This document shows, piece by piece, positions 7,816-55,064 of a DNA stretch of 64,000 nucleotides (within the stretch, counting starts at the first letter, position 1; the number at the start of each line of letters is the position of its first letter). The notes under the pieces were generated by a model. That model saw nothing but the letters and a program-made list of their open reading frames with translations. It did no database searches and was not told the origin of the DNA. Source of the stretch: Candidatus Aenigmatarchaeota archaeon (GTDB taxonomy: Archaea; Aenigmatarchaeota; Aenigmatarchaeia; PWEA01; JACQIF01); NCBI GenBank assembly GCA_016432325.1, contig CP066684.1:704001-768000 (forward strand), read 5' to 3'. A program made the position numbers and the translations under genes.

Positions 7816-8277
7816 ATGCTAAAATCGAAGAATACCAACAAATCCGGCCAGTTTTTCATGACTTACCGACCACGCCGAGGTAAGTTTGAAAAACTTCACA
7901 AATCCGGCCAGTTTTTCATAATCTCAACGATAATCGTCGCGTTTTCCTTGGTCGGCATCCAGTTTCTCCTCGCCGGATACAACCTCGCCGATCCTTCAAA
8001 GATATTTGCGCTTCAGGAAGACTATCTCTTCTTCAATACCAAAGCGGCTCTGAACCAGACGTATTACGCGTATCCCTGTCCTCTCATGGAACGGAATCTG
8101 AACGAAGTGAAGAACGGTCTCGAAAGAAAACTGCAGACGCGGCTGATGATTCTGAATGTGACGTTCACGGACCCGTGCGCGGGCGCCGGAGAAAACACGA
8201 AACAGACCACGACATTCTACGTGAACCTGACGTCGCGCACGTATGTGCTGTACGACGAGTTCACACTAGCGCCCTGA
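7816..8277 (+). CDS. pilin-like protein with class III signal peptide (KSGQFF motif duplicated)
   Basis: K-x-G/Q-F-hydrophobic N-terminus; KSGQFF occurs twice because of a 60-nt insert. Confidence 0.7.
   Translation: MLKSKNTNKSGQFFMTYRPRRGKFEKLHKSGQFFIISTIIVAFSLVGIQFLLAGYNLADPSKIFALQEDYLFFNTKAALNQTYYAYPCPLMERNLNEVKNGLERKLQTRLMILNVTFTDPCAGAGENTKQTTTFYVNLTSRTYVLYDEFTLAP
7838..7919 (+). repeat. hairpin insert with 22-bp direct repeat
   Basis: acaaatccggccagtttttcat at 7838-7859 and 7898-7919; internal ACTTACC/GGTAAGT stem extended by AGTTTTTCA/TGAAAAACT. Confidence 0.85.
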
Positions 8278-8286
8278 CGCGGATAT

Positions 8287-10542
8287 TTAAAGCACGGTTT
8301 TTGCCAACCATTGGCCCGTGTATGACTCCTTGTTAGAGATTATATCTTCTGGCGTTCCCTCGGCAACAATTTCCCCACCACGGTCGCCGCCTTCGGGACC
8401 TAAATCTATTATCCAGTCCGCGCTCGCCATAACGTCCAGATTATGTTCGATGACCAACACAGAGTTTCCCTCGTCCACCAAACGATGCAAGAAGCCGAGT
8501 AGTTTTTCGACGTCGGCAAAGTGCAGCCCCGCCGTCGGTTCATCGAGAATATAGAACTCGCTTCTTTTATGGAGACTTTCCGCCAACTTCAACCGTTGTG
8601 ACTCGCCGCCAGACAATGTATCGAGTGTCTGGCCGATGTTCAGATAGTCAAGACCGATGTCTCTCAATACACCCAGTTTTTTATTGAGTTCGTCATGGTT
8701 GAAGAACCGAATGGCTTCATCGGCGGTCATCTGCAATATCTCAAAAATGTTCTTGCCATGGTATTCGTATCGTAACGTATTGGGACTATATTTCTTACCA
8801 TCGCACGCTTCACAGACAATTTTGATTGATGCCATAAAGTGCATATCGACTTTCTTGTGGCCCAATCCCTTGCAATCCTGACACGCACCCCGACCATTGG
8901 AGCTGAACAGTGCTTTGTCGACGCCATTCTCCTTTGCAACAATTCGTCTGATGATGTCGAAGGCGCCTGTGTAGGTTGCGATGTTGCCGCGTGGAGATGA
9001 GCCAACAGGCGACTGGTCAACGAGCACCACACGTTTTCTATATTGTTTTGAGAAAACATCGTTAATCAGAGTGCTTTTTCCAGAACCCGAGACACCTGTT
9101 ACCGCGGTAAAGACGCCCGTTGGTATCTTGACGGAGATATTTTTGAGGTTGTGCAGAGTGGCGTTCTTGATTCCCAAGTAACCTGTTGGCTTGCGTCGGA
9201 CATTTCTTATAACATGCTTGGATTTACCGCTTAGGTATTTTCCAGTCAAGGAGTTGCCATCTCTCATGATTTCACGAGGTGAACCTGTAGCAACCACCTC
9301 GCCACCAAACTTTCCTCCGCCTGGGCCAAGTTCGATTAAGTAGTCGGACTCGAGCATCACGCTGGCATCGTGCTCCACGGCGATGACGGTGTTTTGAGAG
9401 TCACGCAATTTCTTCATAACACGAATTACGTTGCCCACATCTCGTGGATGAAGTCCTGTCGTTGGTTCGTCCAAAAGATAGATTGTTTCGATGAGGGTGC
9501 TGCCCAGCTCTCTGGCGAGCTTTATTCTCTGCGCTTCGCCAGCGGAGAGAGTATCCACGGATCTGTTCAGCGATACATATCCAATACCGACGTCGATAAG
9601 CCCGTCGAGCAGTTCTTTCATCCTTGTCACAATTGGTTTGGCAACAGGTCCATCTATCCCCACCAATTCTTTTGTCAGAGATGTTATTGGCAACGATGCG
9701 AAATATCCTATGTTTTTGCCGTTAAGGGTCACTGCTAACGCTTTCTTGTTCAGTCTCGCGCCACCACAAGTAGAGCATTCTTTGGTTAGCCAATATGCGG
9801 CGTCTGTCTTGGATTTGGCGGTGGAGATGCCTCTCACGTCGCCAGCCCGTTCGACGAGTCTATTGGCCACGCCCTCCCAGCTATACGACTGGACAAAGCC
9901 CTGAGACGCGTTCCTGAGCTTTATCTGAGGCGAGTAAAGAAGGAAGTCCAGTTCCTTCTTGGAGAAATCCTTGATTGGCTTGTCGAATTCAACCCTTTTT
10001 GTGGTCTTCAGGATGTTCATATATCTGCCGCTTGGTTTAAACAGCGTGTGTCCGATGGCACCATCGTTCAGGGTCTTCTCGAAATCTATGAGAATCCTTT
10101 GGTCGATGGTAATCTCGGTGCCAATGCCTTTGCATTTTTCGCAGCAGCCCAACGGGCTGTTGAAAGAGAAATGGCCAGCACTTAAATTTCTGGAACCTGC
10201 CCGTGAGAACAGTAGCCTTAGATATGTGTAGATTTCTGTAACTGTGCCTACAGTAGAGCGGGGACTTTCTCTCAACTGTCTCTGTTCTATCATAATTGTT
10301 GGCGAGAGTCCTTTAATGTCGTCTACGTCTGGTCGTTCGGTTCTTTGAAGGAGGCGAGCCGCGTATGTATCTAACGATTCCAAGAACTGCCGTTGCCCCT
10401 CGGAAAATATGATATCAAAAACAACAGTCGACTTGCCCGACCCAGAAACCCCAACGAGAGACGTTATCTTGTTACGGGGTATCTCAACGTCTATGTTCTT
10501 CAGGTTGTGTTCCCGCGCTCCGAGAATTTCAATATGGTCCAT
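8287..10542 (-). CDS. uvrA: UvrA-like ABC ATPase (short UvrA2/DrrC type)
   Basis: GAREHNLKN, two Walker A GVSGSGKST motifs, LSGGE.QR, LDEPT, CxxC zinc motifs; visibly lower GC. Confidence 0.92.
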   Translation of the reverse strand: MDHIEILGAREHNLKNIDVEIPRNKITSLVGVSGSGKSTVVFDIIFSEGQRQFLESLDTYAARLLQRTERPDVDDIKGLSPTIMIEQRQLRESPRSTVGTVTEIYTYLRLLFSRAGSRNLSAGHFSFNSPLGCCEKCKGIGTEITIDQRILIDFEKTLNDGAIGHTLFKPSGRYMNILKTTKRVEFDKPIKDFSKKELDFLLYSPQIKLRNASQGFVQSYSWEGVANRLVERAGDVRGISTAKSKTDAAYWLTKECSTCGGARLNKKALAVTLNGKNIGYFASLPITSLTKELVGIDGPVAKPIVTRMKELLDGLIDVGIGYVSLNRSVDTLSAGEAQRIKLARELGSTLIETIYLLDEPTTGLHPRDVGNVIRVMKKLRDSQNTVIAVEHDASVMLESDYLIELGPGGGKFGGEVVATGSPREIMRDGNSLTGKYLSGKSKHVIRNVRRKPTGYLGIKNATLHNLKNISVKIPTGVFTAVTGVSGSGKSTLINDVFSKQYRKRVVLVDQSPVGSSPRGNIATYTGAFDIIRRIVAKENGVDKALFSSNGRGACQDCKGLGHKKVDMHFMASIKIVCEACDGKKYSPNTLRYEYHGKNIFEILQMTADEAIRFFNHDELNKKLGVLRDIGLDYLNIGQTLDTLSGGESQRLKLAESLHKRSEFYILDEPTAGLHFADVEKLLGFLHRLVDEGNSVLVIEHNLDVMASADWIIDLGPEGGDRGGEIVAEGTPEDIISNKESYTGQWLAKTVL

Positions 10543-10598
10543 CGTCTCGCTTTCCTATTCTGCGATATGTTTTTAAAGGTTCCTGCCTAACTCACGGC

Positions 10599-10991
10599 AT
10601 GTCCAAGCAAGAAAAAAAGGCCGCAACTGTCGGCGAGGCGTTGACGAATTGGCACGAAGATTTCACGCATAATTTCAACCCCGAAGACGTTCCGGCTGGC
10701 GCAGAGGACCTGGAAAACGCCGTTCTGTACATCGTGACTCACGCGGAGTCAGAGGCGCTGAAAGACAATGCGAGTATCCTGGGCGCTCTTGAGTCCGAGG
10801 TACGGTTCTTCATCATGAATATGGATAACGTGGACCACAAATACGCTCCTGTGGCGAACAGGAACGTCGAACTGCTCGGCCGGTTTTACGGCAGGCTCGT
10901 GGAAGAGCTGGAGAAAGAGCCGGCGATACGCGACGGCAGACTCGAAGACGTCAACCATTCCATTCGGATCGGACGAAGATGGCGCGGTTAA
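10599..10991 (+). CDS. hypothetical protein
   Basis: 130 aa ORF after a TTTTTAAA box. Confidence 0.6.
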   Translation: MSKQEKKAATVGEALTNWHEDFTHNFNPEDVPAGAEDLENAVLYIVTHAESEALKDNASILGALESEVRFFIMNMDNVDHKYAPVANRNVELLGRFYGRLVEELEKEPAIRDGRLEDVNHSIRIGRRWRG

Positions 10992-11015
10992 ATAACTTAT
11001 CGTGCAAATCGCACC

Positions 11016-11270
11016 ATGGCCGCGAGAATAGACAAGCGCGTGATAGGAGGAACGCTCAGCGGAGTAGCAGGCGCGTTCGTCGGAGATTCAGCGGCGCACG
11101 CGTTCGATAGGCTCCTGATGCCTGACGCGCCGACGCACTCGCTGCTCGATACGATGCTCCGCAACATTCCGTACGAGCCCACGATTGGACAGTACGTTAC
11201 GACTCTTGGCACGATGCTCATCTGCGTCAAGGTTGGAATGGACTATTTCGGCAGACCTATCAGACAGTGA
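11016..11270 (+). CDS. small membrane protein
   Basis: 84 aa, two hydrophobic segments. Confidence 0.55.
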   Translation: MAARIDKRVIGGTLSGVAGAFVGDSAAHAFDRLLMPDAPTHSLLDTMLRNIPYEPTIGQYVTTLGTMLICVKVGMDYFGRPIRQ

Positions 11271-12363
11271 GCCCCTCGAACTTCCTTCTGACGCGCTCAA
11301 GAAACTCCTCCTTGTGTTCTATCGGAACCGATCCTGCCGCGGCCTTGTCGTGACCGCCGCCTTCTCCGAGCCCGCGCGTCAGCTCCTTCACGAGCGCCGC
11401 CACGTCCACGCGGCCGGACTGGCAGCGGAAGGACATCTCGACGTTGTGCGCCGTCGCCCGCCAAACCATCACGACGCTGTCCGAATGCGCTTCTGCCACG
11501 CGTGTGGCAAGCACGCCGACTATCTTGTATTTGCTCGCGATGTGGTACATGAGCGCGCCGGCCTTTTCGAAGCGCACTGCATTGTGCTCGAAGTCGTCCA
11601 TCGTCGCCTCAAGCTCGGTCTGATACGCGTTGTAGTGCTTCATGAGCGCGCTCGACGTGATGTCCTCCGGGCTTTCCGCGTTAGAAACCACGTCAAACGC
11701 CAGCGTGGCGCCCTTGTGGCCCTCGACGCCGTAAGCCGCCGAGATTATGTTTGAGATGAGGCCGAGCCCGCTGTTCCACATCTCGCGCTGGTCGTACAAC
11801 TCCTTCAGTACCAGTTCCGGATGCTTCTTCGCCACGAGGTCGATGAGGTCCTTGCAGTCCTTCAGGCCGTAGTCGCTCAGCACGCCGACGCCCGCCAGCC
11901 AGCAGTATTTGGTGGAGAACGGTTGCGTAAGCACGTAGGCGAGATAGGACGTGGGCCTGTACAGCTTCGCGTCTTCGAAGCGCGGATTGATGTGGACGAC
12001 CGTGCGCGACGACAGGTCCTTCCTCGGTATGTGGTGGTCGAGAACGAGCATCTTCACGCCCCTCAGGGACGGCTCCATCGGAGACTGGTCTATCGGAAGG
12101 TCGCAGGTTATCACGCGCTCCTGTTCCTTCATCTGGTCGAGAAGCACGTCAGAAACGTTGATGCCCACCTCGTCCTTGCATTTCGCGAGAACCGGTTCGA
12201 TGCCTTTGGTTCGAAGATACTTCACAACAAGCGCCGCAGAACAGATGCCGTCGGAATCCCTGTCGAAAACGATACCATAAGAACGAGTCTCTTCGAGGAA
12301 CGCTCGCGCCTTGTCCAGATTGAAGGGCATCCCGGAAGGACCGGCGCTTCGTTTGACGACCAC
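11260..12363 (-). CDS. DHH/DHHA1 family phosphoesterase (RecJ-like)
   Basis: D.DSDG, CD, LDHH, GGGHDKAAA motifs. Confidence 0.9.
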   Translation of the reverse strand: MVVKRSAGPSGMPFNLDKARAFLEETRSYGIVFDRDSDGICSAALVVKYLRTKGIEPVLAKCKDEVGINVSDVLLDQMKEQERVITCDLPIDQSPMEPSLRGVKMLVLDHHIPRKDLSSRTVVHINPRFEDAKLYRPTSYLAYVLTQPFSTKYCWLAGVGVLSDYGLKDCKDLIDLVAKKHPELVLKELYDQREMWNSGLGLISNIISAAYGVEGHKGATLAFDVVSNAESPEDITSSALMKHYNAYQTELEATMDDFEHNAVRFEKAGALMYHIASKYKIVGVLATRVAEAHSDSVVMVWRATAHNVEMSFRCQSGRVDVAALVKELTRGLGEGGGHDKAAAGSVPIEHKEEFLERVRRKFEGLTV

Positions 12364-16510: not shown

Positions 16511-16511
16511 C

Positions 16512-17459
16512 TTACTTCCCGCCTAACTCTCTGGCCAGCTCCTTTATGAACCTTTCAAAGTTCTTCGCAGGCACCTGCGCGCCGCACGCGGCCGCGTGTC
16601 CTCCGGCAGAGCCGCCAAGAGGCTTCGCCACCTTGCGCGCCACGCGGGCCAAATCGTGAGCGAACCCCTTGTTCGCACGCAGGGACATGTCGACGTGTCC
16701 ACCTTCGAGTATTCCTATTACGCCTACCTTGGCGTCTGCTATTCCCATAATCAGGTGCGCGCCTTTGGCCAGCGAACCCATCTCGATTATCGCGTATGCG
16801 ACCTTTCCGACAACAGTGTGGTTCTGGACCAGACGCTCGTAGAGCAGCTTGTCGTGCCTGGCCTCTTTCAGAGCGAGTTCCACAACGTCTTTCATTTCAG
16901 ACGGCTCGACGCCTTTAACGAGTTCACGAACGATTCTCCGTTTCAGGTCGTACAGATGCCTCGCCTCTCCCATCGCCTCGAGAAGGATGCCCGCCTGGAA
17001 ATAGATTATCCTCTTATCCCACTTCTCGAGCTCTTTCGTTATCCAGTTCGTGTCGTCCGCGTAGTCGCCTATCGCCCCGTAGAGCGCTATTCTTGAGAAC
17101 TCCCTTGGAAGCTTTTCGTGCAGATACATGTACGCGAGCTCTGCCGTAGAGCGGTTGGTGTCGTGAACGTACTCGTCCGGAACGTCGCGATCGCGCGTTC
17201 CGTTGGGCAGCGGGTGGTGGTCTATGTAGAGAAGTTCGTATTTCGATGAGATGCGTTTCAGCTCCGCGAGAATCAGAGGCGCGTCCTCGTCGTGCAGCGC
17301 GATGTCCAGAATCACGGTGTGCTCCTTGGTCGCCTTCAGGTCCGACAGGAGTTGCGTAGGCCGGCTGAAGTGTACGCTCTCCGCATCGACGCCGAAGGCT
17401 TTGGCTACGAGAACGGCAGACGTAAGACCGTCTGTGTCGCCGTGCGCGAAGATCTTCAG
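16512..17459 (-). CDS. DHH/DHHA1 family phosphoesterase, 5' end interrupted by stacked inserts (probable CTG start)
   Basis: Frame extends upstream of the listed ORF to (L)KIFAHGDTDG; IDHH, GGSAGGHAAACG. Confidence 0.85.
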   Translation of the reverse strand: MKIFAHGDTDGLTSAVLVAKAFGVDAESVHFSRPTQLLSDLKATKEHTVILDIALHDEDAPLILAELKRISSKYELLYIDHHPLPNGTRDRDVPDEYVHDTNRSTAELAYMYLHEKLPREFSRIALYGAIGDYADDTNWITKELEKWDKRIIYFQAGILLEAMGEARHLYDLKRRIVRELVKGVEPSEMKDVVELALKEARHDKLLYERLVQNHTVVGKVAYAIIEMGSLAKGAHLIMGIADAKVGVIGILEGGHVDMSLRANKGFAHDLARVARKVAKPLGGSAGGHAAACGAQVPAKNFERFIKELARELGGK

Positions 17460-17624
17460 AACACATCGCCCCCAATCCGTTCTGAAGTATTCGAACGAGG
17501 TTCGAAGATTTTCACGCGCCCGCCTCCGCGCGGCGTGAAAACTTGAGACCGCGTTTCAAGATTTTCAGGACCTATCCCCTCCATCCGGTCCCGAAGTATT
17601 TGAATGAGGTTCGAAGATTTTCAT
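17448..17624 (-). repeat. three stacked twin-hairpin inserts duplicating the start region NTGAA(A/G)ATCTT
   Basis: Copies begin at 17624 (ATG), 17568 (CTG), 17515 (GTG), 17459 (CTG); periods 56/53/56; units 1 and 3 closely similar. Confidence 0.9.
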
Positions 17625-17657
17625 ACTCCAGATAGTGCGGACCGATAAATAAAGAAG

Positions 17658-17863
17658 TGGTAGCCCCGGTAGGATATTCATGAAACGCGCGGCGTTTCAT
17701 ACTTTCGGCTTCTTCGAATCCGAAAGTCTTCGAACCTACGTCAACGGTTAGCTTCGTCTGCTCACAGTTCTTTCGAACTCGCATCTTTAGAGACAAACTC
17801 CAAAGACCGCTATCCTTTTGTGGAACCGCTGGAATTCCGGTTTGGCCACTAGACGACGGGGCT
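17658..17863 (-). tRNA. tRNA-Gln(TTG) with three introns (17818-17843 D-loop, 17750-17799 at 37/38, 17675-17728 at 59/60)
   Basis: Removing the three BHB-bounded segments gives a 76-nt cloverleaf AGCCCCG...CGGGGCT-A-CCA. Confidence 0.9.
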
Positions 17864-18248: not shown

Positions 18249-18310
18249 ATGAAAACATCGAAACTCGGTTTCGAATCTTCCAGAGGAAACAGGTGAATTT
18301 CGTGAAAATA
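18249..18310 (+). promoter_or_regulatory. hairpin leader/uORF duplicating the thrS start
   Basis: ATGAAAACA ... GTGAAAATA, period 53, TCGAAAC-TCG-GTTTCGA hairpin, SD AGGTGA. Confidence 0.7.
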
Positions 18311-20119
18311 CTGACGCTGCACTCGAACTCGCTGACCGTGACGCCTACAAAGAAGGCGATCAAGGACGCCGACGAGGAGCACGAGGCGCTCACGGCGAAA
18401 GAAGCTCTGGTCGTCTTCACGAGCGTCGAGAAGGAGGACGAGAAGAACAATGACGTCGTGGAGCGAACCGTAGAAGAGATACTCAAGGTCAACGAGCAGG
18501 TGCATGCGAAAGAAATCGTAATCTATCCGTACGTGCACCTGACGAACGCGCCGTCGTCGCCCGGTTTCGCCAAGGAGACTTTGAACAGACTAACCGCGGC
18601 TCTGGGAAAGCACGCAATCGTGAAGAAAGCGTCTTTCGGCTGGTACAAGGCGTTCACCATAGACGTGAAAGGCCACCCGCTGGCCGAACTGTCGCGCGAG
18701 ATAAAAGGCGAAGCGGAAAAGAAGCGCGCGCCGATAAAGAAGGAATATTTCATCATGACAGAGGACGGCAAGACGCACGACCCCGGAACGTACAAGTACA
18801 AGCAAGGCGAGGAGAACTTCAAGATTCTGGTGGATAAGGAAGCTCTGGGAAAAGAAGCGCCAGGAGGGAAAGAACCTGAATACATCAAGCATGTCAAACG
18901 TTTTGGAATAGACTGGGAGAGCATGTCAGACAGCGGCCACATGAGATACGGACCGCTGGGCGCGATGATACTTGAGCTCGCTTCGGACTACGCGAACGCC
19001 GTTGTGCGCTCCGTGGGGATTCCCGTGTACAACGTGCGCGGAACGAACATGTTCTCCCTGAACGAGCGCGCGATAGCAGAGCACGCGAAGCTCTTCGGAG
19101 ATCGTCTGTACGAGCTGGAGATGGAGAAAAAGAGGTTCGTCCTCAGATACGCCGCGTGCTTCCAGCAGTTCGCGATAATGAAGGACTGGATTATATCGTA
19201 CAAGAACATCCCTCTCGGTGCGTTCGAGGTCGCCGATTCATATCGTTTCGAACAGTCAGGCGAGACGCTGCTGTGCTTCCGCCTTCGAAAATTCCAGATG
19301 CCGGACATGCACGTGCTTACGTCAGACATGGAAGAGGCCAAGAAATGGACGCTCAGGATTCACGACAAGATATACGGGGAGATCGGCAAGCTTGGTCGCG
19401 ACTACTACTCGCTCTACAACCTCACATCGAAGGAATACTTCGAAAAGAACAAGGAGTTTTTCAAGGAGATGGTTCGCCGCGAGAAGAAGCCCGTGCTTCT
19501 GTGCTTCTATCCGCAGGGCGTCAACTATTACTGGATGTTGAATGTGGAGTATCACATCGTCGATTCGATGCAGAGGCCGCGCGAAATCGGGACGGTGCAG
19601 ATAGACGTCGGCAACGCCGAGCGCTTCGGCATCACATACACAGACGCGTCGGGCGCCGCGAAACATCCGATAATCCTGCACACGGCGATAATAGGCGGCC
19701 TTGAGAGATACATCTACACGATATTCGACACGGCGCTCCGCGAGAAGCATCCGACGTTGCCTCTGTGGCTGAGCCCGACGCAGGTTCGCCTGTGTCCGGT
19801 GAACGACACGTACGCGAAGAAGTGCGAGGCTCTGGCGGAGGAACTGGAGAAGAAAGGCGTGCGCGCGGACGTGGACGACCGCACGGAGTCCGTGCAGAAG
19901 AAGGTCCGCGACGCGGAGACGGATTGGATACCGCTCATCGTTGTCTACGGAGAGAAGGAAGACGCGGCGAAGAAGCTTGCCGTGCGCTTCAGGAAGTCTG
20001 GAGACGTCGAGAATATGTCTCTCGTCGAGCTGGCTTCGAGAATCAGGAAGGAGACATCCGAATATCCGTTCAGGCCGTTGACGATGCCGAAATTGGTTTC
20101 AAAGAGGCCGAAGTTCTAG
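18302..20119 (+). CDS. thrS: threonine--tRNA ligase (archaeal type, N-terminal editing domain)
   Basis: YPYVHL, FGWYKAF..VKGHPLAELSR, LRYAACF, YRFEQSGE, P.WLSPTQVR. Confidence 0.96.
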   Translation: MKILTLHSNSLTVTPTKKAIKDADEEHEALTAKEALVVFTSVEKEDEKNNDVVERTVEEILKVNEQVHAKEIVIYPYVHLTNAPSSPGFAKETLNRLTAALGKHAIVKKASFGWYKAFTIDVKGHPLAELSREIKGEAEKKRAPIKKEYFIMTEDGKTHDPGTYKYKQGEENFKILVDKEALGKEAPGGKEPEYIKHVKRFGIDWESMSDSGHMRYGPLGAMILELASDYANAVVRSVGIPVYNVRGTNMFSLNERAIAEHAKLFGDRLYELEMEKKRFVLRYAACFQQFAIMKDWIISYKNIPLGAFEVADSYRFEQSGETLLCFRLRKFQMPDMHVLTSDMEEAKKWTLRIHDKIYGEIGKLGRDYYSLYNLTSKEYFEKNKEFFKEMVRREKKPVLLCFYPQGVNYYWMLNVEYHIVDSMQRPREIGTVQIDVGNAERFGITYTDASGAAKHPIILHTAIIGGLERYIYTIFDTALREKHPTLPLWLSPTQVRLCPVNDTYAKKCEALAEELEKKGVRADVDDRTESVQKKVRDAETDWIPLIVVYGEKEDAAKKLAVRFRKSGDVENMSLVELASRIRKETSEYPFRPLTMPKLVSKRPKF

Positions 20120-30450: not shown

Positions 30451-33400
30451 GTGAAAAACCATAGGACGTTCTTGCTGACACTGTTCGCAGCGGCAATATT
30501 AATGGGCCCATCGGCTCTCGCGCAGACTCCCGATTATCTGAACATAGACGCCGGAACGACTCCGGACGACCCGTTCTACTTCTTTGACACGACGTGGGAT
30601 GGCGTCCAGATGTTCATCGCAATCAGCCCAGAAGACAAGGCGGCGCTCGCCGCGGAAATCAGCGCGGAGCGCTTCGCCGAGATGCACCAGATGATGGAAG
30701 AGAACAACTGGGTGGCGGCCCAATCAGCGGCGCAAGGCGCCGAGTCGTGGACGGGCCAGTTCGCCACTGCGCTTGAGAGCCTGCCGCCTATTGTTGATCC
30801 TGTTGCTCTTGCAGAGATAGGAGAACTTTCTCATTATGTTAACGACTATTCAGATGCCGTACATGAGCAGTATGAAGAGCTTCTGGCGTCCGGCGAGCTT
30901 GATGAGGCGACGGCAGACACGCTGCCTGTAGACGCCCTTGTCGAAAGCACTGTTGACGCCCAGGCCGGTTATGTCGAAGCCAAGGACGAGGTCATAGCGG
31001 CCGCGGCCGAGGAACAGGGAATCACGCAAATAGAGGCCGGGATACAGTACTCCAATGCCGAGGAGGATGTGGGCCTGACAGACGTGCAGAAGGATGCGGT
31101 CGCTACGGAACTCGTGGACGCGCGAGATGCGGCGACTGAACTTGAGGAGGCGTACTTGGCTCTGCCTGACGGCGAGGAGAAGCTCGTCCTAGGCAACATG
31201 GTGGAGGACGCGAAGCTCAACCTGCAACAGAGCGAGTACCTGTTCAAGGCGGGCGATTATGACGCAGCTTCCGGCAATCTCATCGAGGGACAGCACTGGA
31301 TATTCAACGCGCAGGACTACGCTGGCGGCGAGCTGACCGAGGACCAAAAGGCCGCCTTTGAAGAGCAGTTCACGAACGTGGAAGCCATAAGGGACGAGGT
31401 AACGGACGGGAGCGCGACTTTCGTGGAAGAGTGGGAAGCCAACAAGGACGCCCTGACAGCCGCATATCCTGAAGAGGCGGCGATTCTTGAGCAGCGCTTC
31501 GAGCAGGAGCAGAACGTTGTTGCTATAGCGACCGCCCTTGAAGAATCATATTCAACAGAGCTCAACGACCTGATTACGGCAGGCGAGGACCCGTCAGAGG
31601 CCGCTCGGATATTGGCGGCGCAGCAGGCCGACGAATACAGGAAGGCATACGGCGAGGAGTTCGTTCCTCCGGGATTCATCGTAACGGGTGAGATTGAACT
31701 GCCTGAAGGAGCCGATGCAACTGCGGTAGAGAATTTCGCCGATCCTGAAATCGCGGCTGGCGCAGGCGGCGGCTTCGTGATAGGAACGCAGTACGTTGAT
31801 CCAGTCACGGATTACAAGTATGAGTTCGTCGAAACGGGCTGGAGATTCACGACTCCGTCCGGCCAGGCATACGAGCATCCATATCCTGAAGGATACGAAC
31901 CGGCGTCCGCCTTCGAGAACGGCAACGAAGAGTACAGTTATACTGTCGACACTCCAGAAGGGCTCGCTCAATATACGTATACTCCTACCGGATACGAAGT
32001 CGTCACGCCTGAAGGAACGACCGAAACTTATGCTTACACGCCCGGGCAGTATAAGCTTCCTGACGGCAAGACAGTGAACTACAAGCCGACCGGCTACGAG
32101 ATAAGGGACGGCGCGGTCGTCGAGGCAAAATACGATTACAATCCCGAGTTCAACGCCTACGCGTCCGCCGACGGCACGGTCTACAGGCCGCCTGACGGGG
32201 CGTACTACCACTACAAGACCGACTACAGCGCAGTCGAGGGAAAATACACTTATGCCGCGGGCAGCGACACGTGGACATACGATCCCAAGACCGCTTCGTG
32301 GGCTTCCGGAGGCGGAGAGACCTACAAGCCGCCCACGGCCGTCGTAGCGCCTGTCGGTTACGAGTCTGACGGCGTTTACCGCTCGCCATCAGGCGTCAGA
32401 TGGGATTACAATTCTGGCACAGGAACGTGGGGATCCACAAGCGGGGAATCCTACAACTCTGCAAACGGCGCGTACCGCTCTGCAACAGGCGCCACAACCA
32501 CGCACGCTTACGATTACAGCAGGCCAACCTACGGCTACGATGCGAGAACGCAGGAGTACAGGTTTGACACCGTGACGCGCGAAGGCACAGGCACGTGGAC
32601 ATACAACCCGCAGGCGAACATCTGGACGTCAGGCTCTGGAGAAACTACAGAAGCAAGTCGCGGTTACGTGCCGCCTACCACGTTGAACTACCCAACGCCC
32701 GTGGCGTATCAGTCTCCATCGTTCTATCCATACCCATCGCCAGGACAGGCGTACGTGACGCCGGCTCCTTACCAGACACCGTCTTACCAGACTCCCAACT
32801 TCGCTTACCAGACTCCTTACTACTCCTACCCCTCGCCCTCGTACGTTTACCCGTCGCCCGGCACGTATCCAACGCCTTCGTACGTCTACCCCACTCCGTA
32901 CCAGTACCCGACACCGGGAAATACATACCCGTCGCCATACTACGCCTACCCAACTCCGGGACAGTACTACCAGACGCCAAACTACTACATCTACCCGACG
33001 CCAAGCTCCACGTACCCAACGCCTGCGTACACATACCCGTCTCCCTACTACTCTTACCCTTCGCCGTCTGACTCCTACCAGACTCCGTACTACGCTTACC
33101 CGTCTCCATCCTCTTACCCAACGCCCTCATACACATATCCAACTCCGGGAACAGAGTACGCTTACCCAACGCCTTCGACCACAGGATATTCGTACCCATC
33201 GCCTTCGTACGCGACACCATACACCTATCCCACTCCGGGCTCGTACCCAACACCATACTACCAGAGCCCCACGTACTACGCTTACCCCACGCCTTCCGCA
33301 GACTACGTGACGCCAACATACTACTCGTACCCGTCGCCGTCTGAAGGCAGCTACCCGTACCCAACGCCTTCATACCCGTCTCCGTATTCGTACCCGACAC

Positions 33401-33804
33401 CGGGAACCGGCTACTCGTATCCGTCGCCTTCGTACAGCTACCCGACACCTTCGTCATACACATATCCGACCCCGGGCAGCGCATACGGATATCCGTCGCC
33501 TTCGTACACGTACCCATCCCCGACGGGTACTTACGTAACGCCTTCCTACTCGACGCCCTCATACGCCTACCCGACTCCAACAGAGGGAGGTTACTCGTAT
33601 CCATCGCCTTACCCGTATCCAACGCCGTCCGAGGGAGGTTACCCGTACCCAACGCCTTACGCGTCTCCGTCCGAAGGATATTCGTACCCATCGCCTGGTT
33701 CGTACCCAACTCCGTCCGAAGGTTATGCCTATCCAACTCCGTACGGAACTCCTGAGTCGTACGGCACACCATACGACTACCCATCTCCGTACGGCACGCC
33801 CTAG
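30451..33804 (+). CDS. giant secreted protein: DUF5667-like N-terminus, Tyr-rich middle, long YP(S/T)P-repeat tail
   Basis: Signal peptide, AGTTPDDPFYFFD...ERFAE, dozens of YPSP/YPTP/YQTP units. Confidence 0.85.
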   Translation: MKNHRTFLLTLFAAAILMGPSALAQTPDYLNIDAGTTPDDPFYFFDTTWDGVQMFIAISPEDKAALAAEISAERFAEMHQMMEENNWVAAQSAAQGAESWTGQFATALESLPPIVDPVALAEIGELSHYVNDYSDAVHEQYEELLASGELDEATADTLPVDALVESTVDAQAGYVEAKDEVIAAAAEEQGITQIEAGIQYSNAEEDVGLTDVQKDAVATELVDARDAATELEEAYLALPDGEEKLVLGNMVEDAKLNLQQSEYLFKAGDYDAASGNLIEGQHWIFNAQDYAGGELTEDQKAAFEEQFTNVEAIRDEVTDGSATFVEEWEANKDALTAAYPEEAAILEQRFEQEQNVVAIATALEESYSTELNDLITAGEDPSEAARILAAQQADEYRKAYGEEFVPPGFIVTGEIELPEGADATAVENFADPEIAAGAGGGFVIGTQYVDPVTDYKYEFVETGWRFTTPSGQAYEHPYPEGYEPASAFENGNEEYSYTVDTPEGLAQYTYTPTGYEVVTPEGTTETYAYTPGQYKLPDGKTVNYKPTGYEIRDGAVVEAKYDYNPEFNAYASADGTVYRPPDGAYYHYKTDYSAVEGKYTYAAGSDTWTYDPKTASWASGGGETYKPPTAVVAPVGYESDGVYRSPSGVRWDYNSGTGTWGSTSGESYNSANGAYRSATGATTTHAYDYSRPTYGYDARTQEYRFDTVTREGTGTWTYNPQANIWTSGSGETTEASRGYVPPTTLNYPTPVAYQSPSFYPYPSPGQAYVTPAPYQTPSYQTPNFAYQTPYYSYPSPSYVYPSPGTYPTPSYVYPTPYQYPTPGNTYPSPYYAYPTPGQYYQTPNYYIYPTPSSTYPTPAYTYPSPYYSYPSPSDSYQTPYYAYPSPSSYPTPSYTYPTPGTEYAYPTPSTTGYSYPSPSYATPYTYPTPGSYPTPYYQSPTYYAYPTPSADYVTPTYYSYPSPSEGSYPYPTPSYPSPYSYPTPGTGYSYPSPSYSYPTPSSYTYPTPGSAYGYPSPSYTYPSPTGTYVTPSYSTPSYAYPTPTEGGYSYPSPYPYPTPSEGGYPYPTPYASPSEGYSYPSPGSYPTPSEGYAYPTPYGTPESYGTPYDYPSPYGTP

Positions 33805-45979: not shown

Positions 45980-46087
45980 TACGGAGGTGTATGAAAGGGA
46001 GCGCCTTTCAAACCTGCACGGGAACGGCGGTTCCCGGCATGCCGGCGGCGAGGCTGCCGTGCATCCTCGCAAGCGCATACGGAGGTG
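45980..46087 (+). repeat. nested twin-hairpin inserts duplicating an SD site
   Basis: tacggaggtg at 45980 and 46078; inner TGCA-bounded unit 46015-46063. Confidence 0.75.
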
Positions 46088-46094
46088 AGTTCAA

Positions 46095-46343
46095 ATGATG
46101 TGCAACATTTCGGCATGCGATGAGAGCGAATACGACTACCTCGAATCGAGGCTGACAGCATTCGCCGAGGCCGCGCACAAGCAGCTGCTTTTCGAGAAGA
46201 TAAAGCAGAAGATAGAGGAGAAGGAAGGCGCGAAACTCGACAAGATAGCCGACCTGCTCGTGGACGCGTTTTCGAGCGAGCAGAACGCGGAGAGAAGCCG
46301 CGAAGAGTTCAGGGACAAGCTGAGAGAAACGTTTGAGGAGTAG
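46095..46343 (+). CDS. small helical hypothetical protein
   Basis: 82 aa, GGAGGTGA SD. Confidence 0.7.
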   Translation: MMCNISACDESEYDYLESRLTAFAEAAHKQLLFEKIKQKIEEKEGAKLDKIADLLVDAFSSEQNAERSREEFRDKLRETFEE

Positions 46344-49543: not shown

Positions 49544-49594
49544 GTCTTGCCGACCAGAAAGTCTATTTAAAAGGGCCGGCTCATCAGGAAACAT

Positions 49595-49657
49595 ATGCGG
49601 GAGTAGCCAGAACTGCGGTTCTGAAACTCCCCCATTGAAGAACATGCGGGAGTAGCC
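49595..49657 (+). repeat. twin-hairpin insert duplicating the tRNA-Leu(GAG) 5' end
   Basis: atgcgggagtagcc at 49595 and 49644; CAGAAC-TGCG-GTTCTG hairpin; ACTCCC complement. Confidence 0.85.
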
Positions 49658-49867: not shown

Positions 49868-49897
49868 CTATTTATTCGTTTACACGAAGCGTTGTCC

Positions 49898-50113
49898 ATG
49901 GCATGCGATACGTGTGGCTCGAAGGAAGATCATGACATCTGCATTCTAGGAGTAGAACGGTTGGACATGTACTACGATCCGGCAGGCATCGATGACATGG
50001 CGGAACCGCCGATCGACGAATACGCCGAGAGGAGATTGCGATTGTCTTCTGCCGGCAATCGATCCAACCAAAGAAAACTCGACGACTACGTTATTTCTTC
50101 CCTGCCTTCTTGA
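49898..50113 (+). CDS. small CxxC hypothetical protein
   Basis: MACDTCGSKEDHDIC...; TATA-like sequence after the tRNA. Confidence 0.45.
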   Translation: MACDTCGSKEDHDICILGVERLDMYYDPAGIDDMAEPPIDEYAERRLRLSSAGNRSNQRKLDDYVISSLPS

Positions 50114-51620
50114 CTTTCTTCACCACGTGCCCCTTGACTTCGTCGCCGAAGGAACGGTCTTCCTCGACCCGCTTTTCCGCGCGCTCTGGAACCATCTGCG
50201 GGAATAAAATGACTTCCTTTATGGAGCTCTGGTTGGTTAGCAGCATCACCAAGCGGTCTATACCGATGCCTACGCCGCCTGTGGGAGGCATGCCGCACTC
50301 CAGCGCGCGTATGAAATCTTCATCCATCTGGTGCGCTTCCGCGTGTCCGCGCTTGCGCATCGCGGCCTGCTGCTCGAAGCGCGAGCGCTGGTCTATCGGG
50401 TCGTTGAGCTCCGAAAACGCGTTGGCGAACTCGCGGCCCGTGATGAACAGCTCGAAACGCTCGGTGACGCCCGGTTCCCCGCGCTTCATCTTTGCGAGAG
50501 GCGACACCTCAACAGGATAGTCCGTTATGAACGTCGGGTTAACGATTTTTGGTTCGACGAACTCCTCGAAGAACGCTTCGATGAGCTCTCCGCGAGTGGC
50601 GCCCTTGTCAGTTTCGAGACCGTGTTTCTTCGCCAGCGCGCGCAGCTCTTCCAGCGTACGGCCGAAGGTTTCGATGCCGGCTCCGCGCACGGCGTCTTCC
50701 ATCGTGACGCGCCTCCACGGGGATTTGAGGTTTATCTTCTGGCCTTGATATTCGAATTCGAGCGTTCCGAGCGCCTTTATAGCAACGTGCTGGAATAGCC
50801 GCTCAACAAAGCCCATCATGTACTCGTAGTCCACGTACGCCTCGTAGAACTCCAGCATCGTGAACTCCGGGTTGTGCGTCGTATCGATGCTTTCGTTACG
50901 GAAGTCCTTGCTTATCTCGTAGACCTTTTCCATGCCGGCCACGACGAGACGTTTCAGGTACAGTTCGTCCGCGATGCGGAGATACATATCGACATCCAAA
51001 TCGTTGTGATGCGTTTTGAACGGGCGTGCCATCGCGCCGCCGTATATCGGCTGCAGTATCGGCGTCTCGACCTCGACGTAGCCGTGCTTGTCGAGAAACT
51101 CGCGCGCCGCCTGTATAATCTTGGTGCGCGCGGCGAATATCCTGCGCACGTCGGGGTTCATCACCATATCGAGATATCGCTGCCTGTAGCGCACCTCGAC
51201 GTCCTTCAAACCGAACCACGTCGACGGAATCGGATAGAGGCATTTGGAAAGCAGCACGAGTTCTTCGGCCGCGATGGAGACTTCTCCCTTGAGAGTCTTC
51301 ATGACCTTGCCTTTCGCGCCTATGTGGTCGCCGCGGTCAAGCAGACGGGAAATCCATGCGTACGCGTCGCCTATAGAGTCCGCGGACACGTAGACCTGAA
51401 TCTTGCCTGTTGCGTCTTGCAAATCGATAAACGTCAGCTTGCCGTGAGTGCGTATGCCGTAGATGCGGCCCGCCACGCTGGCGCGCGCGCCTTCGTGCTT
51501 CGCGTAGGCGTTCACTATGTCTCCCGCGGTGTGCGTGCGGTCGTATGCGTACGCAAAGGGCTCGATGCCCAGCTTCTTCAACTCTTCCAGCTTGCGCAGG
51601 CGTTCTGCACGTGTGTCCAT
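50091..51620 (-). CDS. lysS: lysine--tRNA ligase, class II
   Basis: RYRQRYLD, EVETP, GGA.ARPF.T, LRIA.ELYLKRL, FRNE.ID.THNPEFT, G.GIGIDRL. Confidence 0.96.
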   Translation of the reverse strand: MDTRAERLRKLEELKKLGIEPFAYAYDRTHTAGDIVNAYAKHEGARASVAGRIYGIRTHGKLTFIDLQDATGKIQVYVSADSIGDAYAWISRLLDRGDHIGAKGKVMKTLKGEVSIAAEELVLLSKCLYPIPSTWFGLKDVEVRYRQRYLDMVMNPDVRRIFAARTKIIQAAREFLDKHGYVEVETPILQPIYGGAMARPFKTHHNDLDVDMYLRIADELYLKRLVVAGMEKVYEISKDFRNESIDTTHNPEFTMLEFYEAYVDYEYMMGFVERLFQHVAIKALGTLEFEYQGQKINLKSPWRRVTMEDAVRGAGIETFGRTLEELRALAKKHGLETDKGATRGELIEAFFEEFVEPKIVNPTFITDYPVEVSPLAKMKRGEPGVTERFELFITGREFANAFSELNDPIDQRSRFEQQAAMRKRGHAEAHQMDEDFIRALECGMPPTGGVGIGIDRLVMLLTNQSSIKEVILFPQMVPERAEKRVEEDRSFGDEVKGHVVKKVKKAGKK

Positions 51621-51673
51621 CGACTTCACCCATGTACGATGGATAATTGAAACCGCAGTTTCATATTGTCCAT
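51614..51673 (-). promoter_or_regulatory. twin-hairpin leader/uORF duplicating the lysS start
   Basis: ATGGACA at 51673 and 51620, period 53; TGAAAC-TGCG-GTTTCA hairpin; TATCCATCG complement; SD GGTGA. Confidence 0.8.
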
Positions 51674-51777
51674 GAGAACCATTTGCACGCGAAGGTTATA
51701 AGAACGTTACTGAGAAGCCCGTTGGAACCATTCTTCTGAGACAATCAATACTCTAATCCATTCAAGACTCGCTTCCG

Positions 51778-52170
51778 CTACGCGCCCGATCGCCTTTTCT
51801 CCCAAGCGCGTATCGTCTCCGTTGCAGTATCCCGTGCTCTGATGCCATCTCCCAGCATCTTGTATGCGTCAAAAAGTATGGGCCCGCCGTACACCATGTC
51901 AACCTCATCGAGGCAATTCTGCACGCTTTCCACTATCATGGTAAGGTCCTCCCTTGGCACACGTATCCCGTATTCTGTGATTAGGCCGAGAACGTTCCAT
52001 GCCTCGTCGCGGTCGGCATCTTCTGCTTCGTGCGAGCCGCTTGCCAGATAATCCAGAACCTTTTCCCTGGCCGCGATCAGCTCTTCCTTTCCAAGGGCCT
52101 TATTCCGTTCTCGTATATCCAAGGCGCTGATTCGTTCTCGTTTATCCGGGTCACTGAATGAAGGCCTCAT
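51778..52170 (-). CDS. hypothetical protein
   Basis: 130 aa ORF with an upstream TTTAAATA box. Confidence 0.6.
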   Translation of the reverse strand: MRPSFSDPDKRERISALDIRERNKALGKEELIAAREKVLDYLASGSHEAEDADRDEAWNVLGLITEYGIRVPREDLTMIVESVQNCLDEVDMVYGGPILFDAYKMLGDGIRARDTATETIRAWEKRRSGA

Positions 52171-52216
52171 TGTACAACCGAGCCAATAACGCGCGAAAGC
52201 TATTTAAACCGATGTC

Positions 52217-53275
52217 TCACTTCTCGGCCATTATCTCCTTGACCTTCTTTTCCAGATCGGTTTTGTAGGTCTCGGAACGGTCCTCTTTCGAATAGAAGTC
52301 GGTCTTCGCTGCCATCGATATCTTCGCCGCCAGAGCACGCGCGACCTTGCCCCTTTTCTCCTGCGGCGCGTGCTGGATGTACGGATGCGTGAACAGCAGT
52401 CCATACTTGGGCGGTCGCGCGTCCCGTGCGCCCTGCTTGCGCGACTTCATGAAACGGAAGAGCGCCTTCTCCGCGCCGAGGAGCTGTATCGTGGACGCAG
52501 GCATCTTGGCCAAACGCTCGAGAGAGCCGGCGTGCTTGATCATCTTCGCCGCCAGTATCGGTCCCGCGACGGCCGTTGTGTTGGGCGCGACTCCGGGCAT
52601 CGCCCGTTCGAGATACATTTCGTAATCCCTTTTGAGGCCGAACAGGTCCACGGTTTCCGCGGCGTGCAGTCTTATCTGTTCGAGGTCGTCCTCCTCTATG
52701 TACGTGCCTATAGTGTCTTCCTCGCGTTTCGCCCCGTCGACTATCGCCTGCGCGTACTTCTCGTTGTCGCGAGTCTTGCGTTCCAGTTCCGGATGGTAGA
52801 TTCCGTACCACTCGTGCAGGCGTTCTGACATCACGTTCGCTATCTCTGTCAGGTCTTCGATGGAAGCGACGGCCTGCGCGACTATCTTATCCTTGTTCGG
52901 TTTCGCCTTCAGTTTTTCCTTTGTTTCCAGCCGCGCGAGCTCGGAGAGCAGCGCGTTCAGCTCCTGCTGGTCCTTGACAAACCCCGTTTCGACTGCAAGT
53001 TTGCGGACGTTGCTCGCCGCGTACTGCGCGCCCGGGTTGCCGGGCTCGCGCGTTATCTCAAAGCCTTCGTACTCGAAACCCAGGTCTGTGACGAGCGCCT
53101 TGTCCTTGGCTGTCGCGAGAACCTCGTCCAGTTCGGGCGTAGTGACTCCCTTGCGCAGGACGTGCAGCCGCTCCTTGATGGTCGCTGCGTCCCTTGGAAA
53201 CAGGGAGAAGGCTGCAACGTTGAAGTCCTTGTCCAGCGCGAAAACGCCCGCGTAGCAGGCTGTCACGTACAACAT
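52217..53275 (-). CDS. nop5: C/D box sRNP protein Nop5/Nop56
   Basis: RLHEWY..H.PEL, APN...VAG, LAKMPASTIQLLGAEKALF, PKYGL, RGK.ARALA.K. Confidence 0.93.
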   Translation of the reverse strand: MLYVTACYAGVFALDKDFNVAAFSLFPRDAATIKERLHVLRKGVTTPELDEVLATAKDKALVTDLGFEYEGFEITREPGNPGAQYAASNVRKLAVETGFVKDQQELNALLSELARLETKEKLKAKPNKDKIVAQAVASIEDLTEIANVMSERLHEWYGIYHPELERKTRDNEKYAQAIVDGAKREEDTIGTYIEEDDLEQIRLHAAETVDLFGLKRDYEMYLERAMPGVAPNTTAVAGPILAAKMIKHAGSLERLAKMPASTIQLLGAEKALFRFMKSRKQGARDARPPKYGLLFTHPYIQHAPQEKRGKVARALAAKISMAAKTDFYSKEDRSETYKTDLEKKVKEIMAEK

Positions 53276-53306
53276 ATCCGACCGCTCCTCTGAAAGGGTC
53301 GCTCGC

Positions 53307-53376
53307 GAAGGTTTAAATAGCTCATGCCGCAAGGGCGGGAGCTTTAAACCGCCCAGCGCCCGGAAGGTTTAAATAG
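53307..53376. repeat. twin-hairpin insert duplicating the TATA box between nop5 and rps17e
   Basis: gaaggtttaaatag at 53307 and 53363; ctttaaacc complement between. Confidence 0.8.
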
Positions 53377-53397
53377 GCAACGTCTAAACCTCCAGCT

Positions 53398-53691
53398 ATG
53401 GGAAGAAACGAAACCTTCGGTTTCAATCTTCCCCGTGAGTTGAGCTATATGGGAAGAATAAAGACCGCGCAGGTGAAGTCTCTCGGCAAGGATTTCGTCA
53501 AGGCCTATCCGGACAGGTTCACGACAGACTTCGACAAGAACAAGGAGATTCTGGCGACGGCCCAGATGAAGTCCAAGTGGCTCAAGAATCGTCTGGCCGG
53601 ATACACGGCGAAGCTCATGAAGCAGAAGGCCCGCGGCGTCATCATAACCGCTCCTCAGAAACAGGAAGAAGAGAAGAAGGAAGAGACATAG
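53398..53691 (+). CDS. rps17e: 30S ribosomal protein S17e (conserved start at 53449; 51-nt in-frame insert upstream)
   Basis: MGRIKT..VK, FTTDFDKNK, SK.LKNRLAGY; ATGGGAAGAA duplicated. Confidence 0.93.
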   Translation: MGRNETFGFNLPRELSYMGRIKTAQVKSLGKDFVKAYPDRFTTDFDKNKEILATAQMKSKWLKNRLAGYTAKLMKQKARGVIITAPQKQEEEKKEET

Positions 53692-53698
53692 TGGGATT

Positions 53699-54067
53699 TG
53701 GTGCGGAGGGCCGGACATTCTCCATGAATGCGCCAAGGCACATCGTGCCCGCAGGCGGATTTTTCATGAAAGTTTTTGCACGGAAGTGTGCAAAAAGTTT
53801 CGAACCGACGAACGCACTAAGCGACCAGATATCTCGAAGCGCATTTTTGATTTTCGCGTTTCGGATAAGCCTTCTTGAGTGTTGCCTCTCACAGAGTTTC
53901 CTCTCGAAACTCAAGGAACTGGCACCGTTGGTCTACGACTTCGTGTCGGAAGACGTACTTTCCGTGCATCTCGGAACGCGTGCGTTCCGAGTTTCCGAAT
54001 ACCGTTCGGAAATGCTTTTGCGCTCTGTGGCGCAAAAGCTTGCTTGGCCAGGCTTGGTTACCTCCGC
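53699..54067 (-). tRNA. tRNA-Leu(CAA) with four introns (53928-54043 D-loop, 53881-53918 at 30/31, 53831-53873 at 37/38, 53716-53798 at 59/60)
   Basis: Splicing gives an 89-nt Leu cloverleaf with CCAGA-CTCAAGA-TCTGG, long variable arm and A-CCA. Confidence 0.82.
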
Positions 54068-54127
54068 AAACTAAACCGACTTTCTTGCGGCAGGTACAAG
54101 AAGCTTTGCTTCTTGGTTACCTCCGCA
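54053..54127 (-). repeat. twin-hairpin insert duplicating the tRNA-Leu(CAA) 5' end
   Basis: 16-bp repeat TGCGGAGGTAACCAAG, period 59; AAGAAGC-AAA-GCTTCTT hairpin; TACCTGCCGCA complement. Confidence 0.85.
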
Positions 54128-54159
54128 TTGCTAATCGCTTCAGAAACAAAGGATATAAA

Positions 54160-54726
54160 TCACTTAATCCTCGCAAGCTCCTTTTTCAGGTTGGAAAGCT
54201 CGCTCTGCAGCTCGGAGACGTATTGCGTTACGCGCGCCCGCTCCTTGGAGCGCGGTATCTCTATCTCCGCCTCTTCGGGGCGCACGAACTCGCCGTCCAG
54301 AGAGATGAGGACGTCTGTGAGGTCCGTGACCGCCTGGCGCATCGCCTTCATGGTGCTGTCGCGGACGTGCTCCACTTCGTTCAAAAGGACCATTGTATCT
54401 GTCACGCTATGCAGGGACACCTTGATTTCCTCGAGCTTCTGGAGAATCTCCTTGTATCTGTCGATTTTGACGAACAGAGGCGCCATTTCTGACGCACGGA
54501 GAGTGCGTTCCACGGTCTCACCGACAGGCGGCCCGTACACCGGCATCTGAGGAGCTTGCGGAACAGGACCGGAGATGGGCTGGGGCGTCCATGAAGGTGC
54601 AGGAGGCAGGGCCATGGAAGGCGGAGCCATCGGAGGCAAGGGCGGCAGAGGAGGTCGCGCGGCGCCCACCCTGTCTTTTACGGCCTGTATGTCCGTGCGC
54701 TCCTCGCTCTTCTTCCAGAAAGCCAT
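54160..54726 (-). CDS. Pro-rich, coiled-coil hypothetical protein
   Basis: PLFVKIDRYKEIL followed by a coiled coil. Confidence 0.7.
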   Translation of the reverse strand: MAFWKKSEERTDIQAVKDRVGAARPPLPPLPPMAPPSMALPPAPSWTPQPISGPVPQAPQMPVYGPPVGETVERTLRASEMAPLFVKIDRYKEILQKLEEIKVSLHSVTDTMVLLNEVEHVRDSTMKAMRQAVTDLTDVLISLDGEFVRPEEAEIEIPRSKERARVTQYVSELQSELSNLKKELARIK

Positions 54727-54808
54727 TCGCATCCCTATAAGTGTAACAACTGCATAGTGTTCAGGGGAACCCATTTATAAACGTTTCAGCAGTTCTTATC
54801 GTTAACGC

Positions 54809-54935
54809 GCGCCGATGATCTAGTGGCATGATTCGAGCTTCCCAAGCTCGTTGTGCGGGTTCGATGACATCCTGTCCCATGGGGCGGGAGGTTTGAAACG
54901 CGAAGCGTTTCAGGAATATCCCGCTCGGCGCACCA
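54809..54935 (+). tRNA. tRNA-Gly(CCC) with 53-nt intron at 59/60 (54866-54918)
   Basis: GCGCCGA/TCGGCGC acceptor stem, CGAGC-TTCCCAA-GCTCG anticodon arm, encoded CCA. Confidence 0.92.
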
Positions 54936-54964
54936 TTCTAAACCTTCTTGTCTCCGCCTCCTGC

Positions 54965-55064
54965 CGTGCACGGAAAACGGAAGTTTTCCGGCATTTTCGA
55001 ACAGTGGTTCGAAAGGTTCGGATTGCATCCGAACATGCCGAAACGTCTATGCCGTTTCGTGCAC
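54965..55064. repeat. nested twin-hairpin inserts (four hairpins)
   Basis: cgtgcac at 54965 and 55058; hairpins CGGAAAAC/GTTTTCCG, TTTCGAAC/GTTCGAAA, GTTCGGA/TCCGAAC, GAAACG/CGTTTC. Confidence 0.75.

Follow-up and report, generated by a model that had tools for sequence, protein, structure and literature searches.

Integrative elements that regenerate the end of their target gene are known from e14 and phage 21, which reside in icd, and integron cassettes are recombined as single-stranded DNA (ssDNA) at attC sites, hairpins with extrahelical bases, and stack at one end. Related features are described for the pNOB8-type and other tRNA-targeting islands, which also regenerate the end of their target gene (PMC3293823), for the ssDNA transposition of the IS200/IS605 family with IS608 (PMC5934647), for the repetitive extragenic palindromes (REP) with RAYT (PMC8266576), for the transposing tRNA introns of Thermoproteales that have a bulge-helix-bulge (BHB) motif (Fujishima 2010, summarised in PMC4090602) and for the GC clusters (GC42) of yeast mitochondria (PMC4478555). 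Here we describe cassettes of 45-65 nt without an open reading frame (ORF), with the layout X1 - cap hairpin - X′ - linker - X2, in which X1 and X2 are direct repeats of a host sequence and X′ is an inverted copy. The stretch analysed (the window, 64,000 nt) comprises bases 704001-768000 of the single 874,869-base contig of genome G000. The unit is real and genome-wide and could be assigned to no known family; its anatomy is new, though its logic is built from known parts.

Like the integrative elements, the cassettes bring a replacement terminus, leave the displaced copy as a direct repeat, accrete in tandem and show silent differences. Unlike them, they measure only 45-65 nt, have neither integrase nor cargo and include, internally, a complement of the end that they carry; their targets comprise TATA boxes, Shine-Dalgarno (SD) sequences, starts, stops and both ends of tRNA genes. 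With IS608 and REP they share a hairpin substrate of fixed polarity and, probably, a target choice by pairing between element and target and a circular intermediate. However, the guide of a cassette is 7-12 nt long and unit-specific instead of a fixed tetranucleotide, a full copy of the target is carried, the junction bases and X′ vary from unit to unit, and no Y1 HUH transposase (PF01797) was found in the 22 genomes of the order (0/22), several of which are incomplete. The introns of Thermoproteales are similar in that families are common to several tRNAs and positions, gain at the DNA level is proposed and the genome is intron-rich, whereas our terminal units mostly lack a BHB, lie outside mature RNAs or antisense to them and carry a duplicate terminus. 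Hairpins with extrahelical bases, stacking at one end and, presumably, ssDNA recombination are also features of integron cassettes, from which our units differ by the lack of gene cargo, by the use of many chromosomal sites and, apparently, by the lack of IntI and attI, the recombinases of the genome matching only general integrase profiles; an attC consensus was not seen by inspection, no dedicated search having been made. As in GC42, we see ORF-less hairpins of about 40 nt with rapid turnover, merger of modules, co-conversion of flanks and no enzyme assigned to them, but those clusters have a fixed sequence and flanking repeats of 2-3 nt, whereas the cassettes have a unit-specific guide arm and a functional gene end.

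The fixed terminal inverted repeats of miniature inverted-repeat transposable elements (MITEs) are absent, as cassette ends vary with the target and only the internal cap is shared. An identical target-site duplication (TSD) of fixed length is also absent, as X varies between 7 and 25 nt among units and its copies differ at silent sites. Cas1 with constant repeats, as in CRISPR and casposons, is lacking (no Cas1 in G000), and so is the reverse transcriptase (RT) of retro-elements that use target-primed reverse transcription or resemble short interspersed nuclear elements (no RT in G000). The replacement of the target gene end, as in integrative elements, is carried. None of the described MITE or REP families was matched by terminal repeats, TSD, Y1 transposase or tetranucleotide guide, and at gathering score the sole match of the window to an Rfam family was one tRNA, with no match of a cassette. 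An earlier note on this DNA knew of no named element with target-templated arms of this kind. The membership tests of known families gave no full agreement, and no published description of such cassettes was found in the literature (most subscription papers lay outside the coverage).

Abundance of the double-hairpin units

All ten loci listed in the earlier note are present in the sequence, and nine of them have the X...X repeat with a hairpin and an inverted copy. The locus at 54965 drops out: its 7-nt 'repeat' is a palindrome, hence there is no target duplication. In total, G000 (56% G+C, 90% complete) contains about 35-40 units. The genome-wide repeat search against shuffled controls, which had been proposed as a check, returned 38 units compared to 1-4 in block-shuffled genomes; a plain count of direct repeats was too noisy owing to codon periodicity. 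The recurring cap hairpin noticed before was also confirmed, as its main form GAAAC-N2-7-GTTTC was observed 72 times in G000 where 11.2 are expected, and 66 times between genes where 1.5 are expected, while control palindromes were flat. Furthermore, a copy of the hairpin arm (at least 8 nt) was found 32 times on the predicted side and 9 times on the control sides. The shuffled genomes, the cap counts and the arm-side counts rule out a chance origin. An assembly artefact was likewise ruled out: an independent Logan contig of SRR12113385 is 100% identical over 6243 bases (window 50449-56691) and spans five loci, and other species have covarying units.

G000 carries an archaeal 16S gene, and the S17e proteins of its relatives in genus, order and class are named Candidatus Aenigmarchaeota. 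In 30 of 41 genomes of the class the strict cap pattern is present, with 30 copies in G000, 10 each in G017 and G019 and only 1-3 in many other genomes; the reversed pattern occurs 0-1 times. No units were found at the rpl15e loci of 80 distant archaea. Among possible viral carriers, one pattern had no matches, and two patterns gave chance matches in coding regions of unrelated phages. A test for replichore bias found neither a skew nor a signal.

Content and gain of the units

The 3′ end of rpl15e (genome position 394896, outside the window) is filled in five species with 70-81% protein identity, two of which have two-unit arrays. All 12 copies specify the peptide SQNRHYG followed by a stop, with a single change in one of them. 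Between neighbours there are 37 silent and 2 non-silent differences, compared to a random silent fraction of 15/72 (21%), and X′ complements the copy of its own unit at 76 of 77 positions but the next copy at only 58 of 77. A duplication generated in place that then decayed cannot account for silent-only divergence together with an X′ that matches its own copy. At informative sites, those that distinguish X1 from X2, X′ has the X2 base 40 times and the X1 base 12 times (p=1.3e-4; non-independent sites, with a few false units among those listed). As X′ tracks X2 and X1 and X2 diverge almost only at silent sites, the data show that the unit consists of cap, X′, linker and X2, with 1-2 extra bases, and that X1 is the displaced end, which has evolved as coding sequence. 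With the unit comes a functional gene end, and the resident end is displaced. Codon usage of outer and inner copies leans towards the outer copy being that of the host at four of five loci, a weak trend. More duplicated gene ends, mostly with silent differences, were seen at genome positions 653250 (-), 452807 (+), 439273 (+) and 272000 (-); they include a histone, a KIKEDED end and a KIFVR end whose outer copy lacks the stop.

These results bear on the earlier claim that the arms are built from the host target, which does not hold as a general rule in view of the X′ counts, the silent differences and the near-identical units at unrelated sites, and may apply only at the birth of a cassette. 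The corresponding alternative, in which a break receives a cap oligonucleotide and X′ and X2 derive from the target through fold-back synthesis or a true TSD, is distinctly improbable. It would account for X′ and X1 being site-specific (63-67% to their own X2 and about 30% to others) and for perfect repeats of up to 22-25 nt. However, it predicts X1=X2 at birth with random decay of X1, in contrast to the shared units at different sites and to the silent-only divergence and the tracking of X2 by X′, of which the rpl15e data refute it as a general route. It survives only for the first colonisation: some such templated step is needed, and may have occurred, at the birth of a gene-specific cassette.

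Two unrelated promoters share a unit that is identical at 61 of 61 positions. The TATA-box unit in the rps17e promoter (53307-53376, + strand; X 14 nt, repeat spacing d=56) has an 88%-identical sister in the endA promoter region at genome position 850343, where a TATA-type unit precedes endA by about 260 nt. The units at psmA and pfdB are 96% identical. The psmA site is empty in G001, of the same genus, and there the psmA start matches, at the fourth base, the X′ still carried by both units; at pfdB, the working copy has the psmA codon and the displaced copy does not. Such identities show that units move from one site to another where X is similar. Natural stepping stones would be TATA boxes, SD/ATG regions and the ends of tRNAs, owing to their mutual resemblance.

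Alignment of orthologous loci, another check that had been suggested, revealed empty sites at rps17e, the threonyl-tRNA synthetase (ThrRS) gene, a DHH/RecJ-family gene and psmA. A second unit sits at the rps17e start (53397-53458, +; X 11 nt, d=51, in frame without a stop). Both rps17e sites are empty in G001, L049 has a unit related to the promoter unit but an empty start, and G011 has stacked units at rps17e. At the ThrRS start, which is empty in two relatives, the unit of G000 (18249-18312, +) is degenerate (d=53), with a displaced ATG copy at 18249, a cap, a linker with an SD and the working GTG copy at 18302. Three stacked units (17448-17624, -) at the start of the DHH/RecJ-family gene hold four copies of its first codons, with ATG (17624), CTG (17568), GTG (17515) and CTG (17459, continuous with the gene), and in this array (17459-17624) each X′ matches the linker-side copy of its own unit. 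Across five species this start has 3, 1, 1, 0 and 0 units, and relatives begin with ATG. The pilin-like gene (ORF 7816-8277) of the window has a 60-nt in-frame unit in its class III signal peptide (7838-7919, +; X 22 nt, d=60), whereas all 11 relatives examined have a single [KH][GA]QFF motif. In another family, G017 and G019 form reciprocal filled and empty pairs at four genes, and the rpl39e start is filled in three genomes of two families. Units are thus gained and stacked at orthologous sites, as the empty sites and arrays of 0-3 units show, and the family is one of active insertion, as had been suggested.

The DHH/RecJ-family gene encodes 315 aa (window 16512-17459, -), continuous with the CTG codon at 17459, which an upstream GTG frame overlaps at its end. 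Gene callers place the start of this RecJ-like gene at 17315, 48 residues short and with loss of the DxDG motif.

Polarity and relation to introns

The gene always lies on the linker (X2) side of the unit. Starts and tRNA 5′ ends carry units in sense orientation, whereas those of stops and tRNA 3′ ends are antisense; when only the loop is used for orientation, the linker side has a same-strand start for 11 caps and an opposite-strand stop for 7. An NGCG-type cap loop is found on the element strand even when this is antisense to the tRNA. In addition, TATA-box units sit outside transcripts, and a D-loop intron module was found antisense behind a tRNA. From the polarity, the TATA units and the antisense module we infer an element that has a strand of its own and inserts at the DNA level; selection against a working end that is locked in a hairpin may add to the polarity.

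Regulatory hairpins kept by the host as mRNA end stabilisers, terminators or translation switches and inherited vertically, with slippage or unequal recombination making arrays and swapping the copy in use so that all copies would stay coding, are an unlikely explanation. Their gain would be left unexplained and their presence at orthologous sites is patchy, identical units occur at unrelated promoters and genes, loop polarity is independent of the transcript strand, and a wobble-strand test shows no clear G-U excess on that strand. On the other hand, host-kept hairpins would fit the rpl15e unit in all five family species, the filled rpl39e starts in two families, the stable folds and the coupling at start sites. 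Start units bring an SD. Of 15 such units, 11 have an upstream ATG frame that terminates between -10 and +5 relative to the real start, and in one it is fused in frame, which is consistent with termination-reinitiation (PMC6728339). Both the translational coupling and the survival of insertions where they are tolerated, as earlier proposed, were upheld. Starts, stops and promoters of core genes are hereby shown to be under continual replacement in streamlined symbionts.

The mechanism of archaeal intron gain is called unknown or open (PMC4090602; bioRxiv 10.64898/2026.10.13.758758). The genome encodes EndA and RtcB, and 19 of 23 reconstructed tRNA genes have a T-loop intron, most of which fit a cut at 59/60. 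EndA is a single protein of 201 aa (L028 1474-2079), found by its catalytic-domain profile despite many non-canonical introns. Few tRNAs are annotated in the window (one by Rfam at gathering score, none by ARAGORN) because most tRNA genes are split by introns. At least four split genes, 17655-17862 (-), 49646-~49870 (+), ~53705-54068 (-) and 54809-54932 (+), escaped both ARAGORN and Rfam (gathering score), and some have three or four introns. Cassettes and introns explain these annotation failures, with no tRNA found by ARAGORN in a window that holds at least five and a RecJ-like gene called too short.

At the 5′ end of the intron-split tRNA-Leu(GAG) lies a unit (49595-49657, +; X 14 nt, d=49) with a 3x2 junction loop and a UNCG-type cap, and another (54053-54127, -; X 16 nt, d=59) is at the 5′ end of a multi-intron tRNA of Leu/Ser type (~53705-54068). 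The tRNA-Gly(CCC) has a T-loop (59/60) intron with a cap hairpin (54860-54920, +) and behind it a multi-hairpin module (54955-55075, -; z -7.1) of the same family as several T-loop introns. The nested hairpin module of the unit that duplicates the SD region of ORF 46095 (45980-46097, +) also belongs to a family found in T-loop introns. More generally, intron modules recur in terminal inserts, intron families are common to several tRNAs, and at one T-loop different species have different introns. The proposal that the same hairpins build the tRNA introns is only partly true: some modules occur both in introns and outside, but the cap itself is present in only 7 of the 23 reconstructed tRNA genes, most intron scaffolds being other hairpin families. 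A 43-nt intron near position 908 of the 16S rRNA has a perfect BHB and contains the cap; the 16S gene (L001 1501-3680, about 2180 nt) has several insertions, one of about 530 nt with an ORF-like interior.

A BHB-like joint was found in 3 of 17 terminal units, compared to 8% at random, and the seven rpl15e units have no common BHB register, so that the idea of BHB introns as the general product does not extend to most terminal units. The unit at 7838, the one that lies inside a reading frame, alone among those tested has its two copies joined by a perfect BHB, and may be an mRNA intron. Terminal units and introns thus exchange modules, but the terminal units are not BHB introns. We also regard as quite unlikely that they are RNA introns in origin, with EndA and RtcB excising cap and X′/X2 as circles, which would put both copies to use, and the circles re-entering the DNA through an RT in trans. 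Both enzymes are present, BHB introns are many (with perfect BHBs in 16S and at 7838), modules are shared, loops are of UNCG type and G001 has an RT; yet, besides the rarity of BHB-like joints and the missing register, TATA units lie in DNA that is not transcribed, both orientations are seen among the units, and an RT was found neither in G000 nor in 19 of the other 21 genomes of the order. Intron modules outside tRNAs, antisense to them and swapped between species at one T-loop bear on the open question of how tRNA introns arrive, and the cassettes may show how archaeal tRNA introns spread.

Proposed mode of integration and neighbouring genes

Most curated units have 1-2 extra bases on the X side of the junction, and a unit closed on itself forms a dumbbell whose X|cap junction is asymmetric by 1-2 bases, in agreement with the dumbbell anatomy described earlier. 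Inspected as a possible kink-turn, the junction loop does not fit. The best model, towards which we lean slightly, is a self-guided ssDNA dumbbell that integrates, probably reversibly, by pairing of X′ with the target, where the circle, its excision and an enzyme are all supposed. The unit would travel as a single-stranded dumbbell circle, X′ would pair with a matching host X exposed in ssDNA, and strands would be exchanged at the X|cap junction. This would install X2 as the functional end and move the resident copy outward without a real TSD. Excision would reverse this, and alone or with exchange between lineages would keep every copy under coding selection. Start-site units would survive by bringing an SD and coupling translation to the real start, and related modules landing at spliceable positions would persist in or as BHB introns. 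The enzyme could be that of host recombination or repair, or a helper in trans. Such a process would combine the capture of a target through base pairing seen in IS608 with the regeneration of gene ends by integrative elements, yet the cassettes do not pass the membership tests of either. With regard to the two mechanisms considered in the earlier note, integration of a dumbbell circle fits if the circle brings its own X, and double fold-back synthesis does not, except possibly at the first birth.

Several observations count against self-guided integration. X1 equals X2 with a mismatched X′ at 45 sites, many units have perfect long repeats, as from duplication, and the rpl15e unit is kept in all five family members, which could mean a benefit to the host. 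Moreover, the first acquisition of a gene-specific X, such as the rpl15e end, is left unexplained, and no responsible enzyme was found. Genome G000 yielded no Cas1, RT (RVT_1), Y1_Tnp HUH, IS110, TnpB or primase-polymerase (Prim-Pol), so that the absence of a transposase or RT noted for the window extends genome-wide; of the co-distributed genes that had been suggested (HUH, Prim-Pol, RT or RtcB), only RtcB is present. RT occurs in 2 of the 22 genomes of the order, one being G001. Near the RT of G001 (L239, contig 68), imperfect repeats with a spacing of about 400-450 nt may belong to a diversity-generating retroelement.

Two tyrosine recombinases (L110 1234-2412 and L111 1225-2412; 392-395 aa, 44% identical, with a C-terminal zinc ribbon) each follow a tRNA gene at a distance of about 60 nt, with a short leader common to both; they match only general integrase profiles and have relatives in 23 of 61 class genomes. 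Across genomes they do not track cap or element numbers, another point against the model. Their position, and the restoration of gene ends by integrative elements, would suit an origin of the units as scars of larger integrase elements or as an ordinary MITE/REP family. This is highly improbable given the uniform 45-65 nt, the lack of fixed terminal repeats or a fixed target, the lack of a Y1 transposase in 22 genomes and recombinases that are not co-distributed with the units.

Tentatively, and with more doubt than for the dumbbell itself, the cassettes could be a new mobile class: self-guided ssDNA dumbbells of about 50 nt that integrate and excise wherever their arm matches, without an element-encoded enzyme, that exchange gene termini between lineages and are the route of gain and replacement of tRNA and rRNA introns in DPANN. 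If true, they would be among the smallest mobile elements known, with the target written in their own sequence, and a natural reprogrammable insertion system.

Among the remaining units of the window, the one at the lysyl-tRNA synthetase start (51614-51673, -; X 7 nt, d=53) has an upstream ATG at 51673 whose frame ends within the SD that serves the real start at 51620. The hairpin module behind tRNA-Gly is followed directly by a 243-aa ORF (window 55047-55778, -) that is listed with a GIY-YIG-like Pfam hit in the contig table and had no match in a Pfam search. The Tyr/Pro/Ser-rich repeats of a 1117-aa ORF (window 32800-33700, +) give rise to many direct repeats unrelated to the cassettes. Finally, a signal-peptide-coding stretch of 156 nt at window 885-1040 has a 97%-identical duplicate near the contig end (genome 874614-874769).

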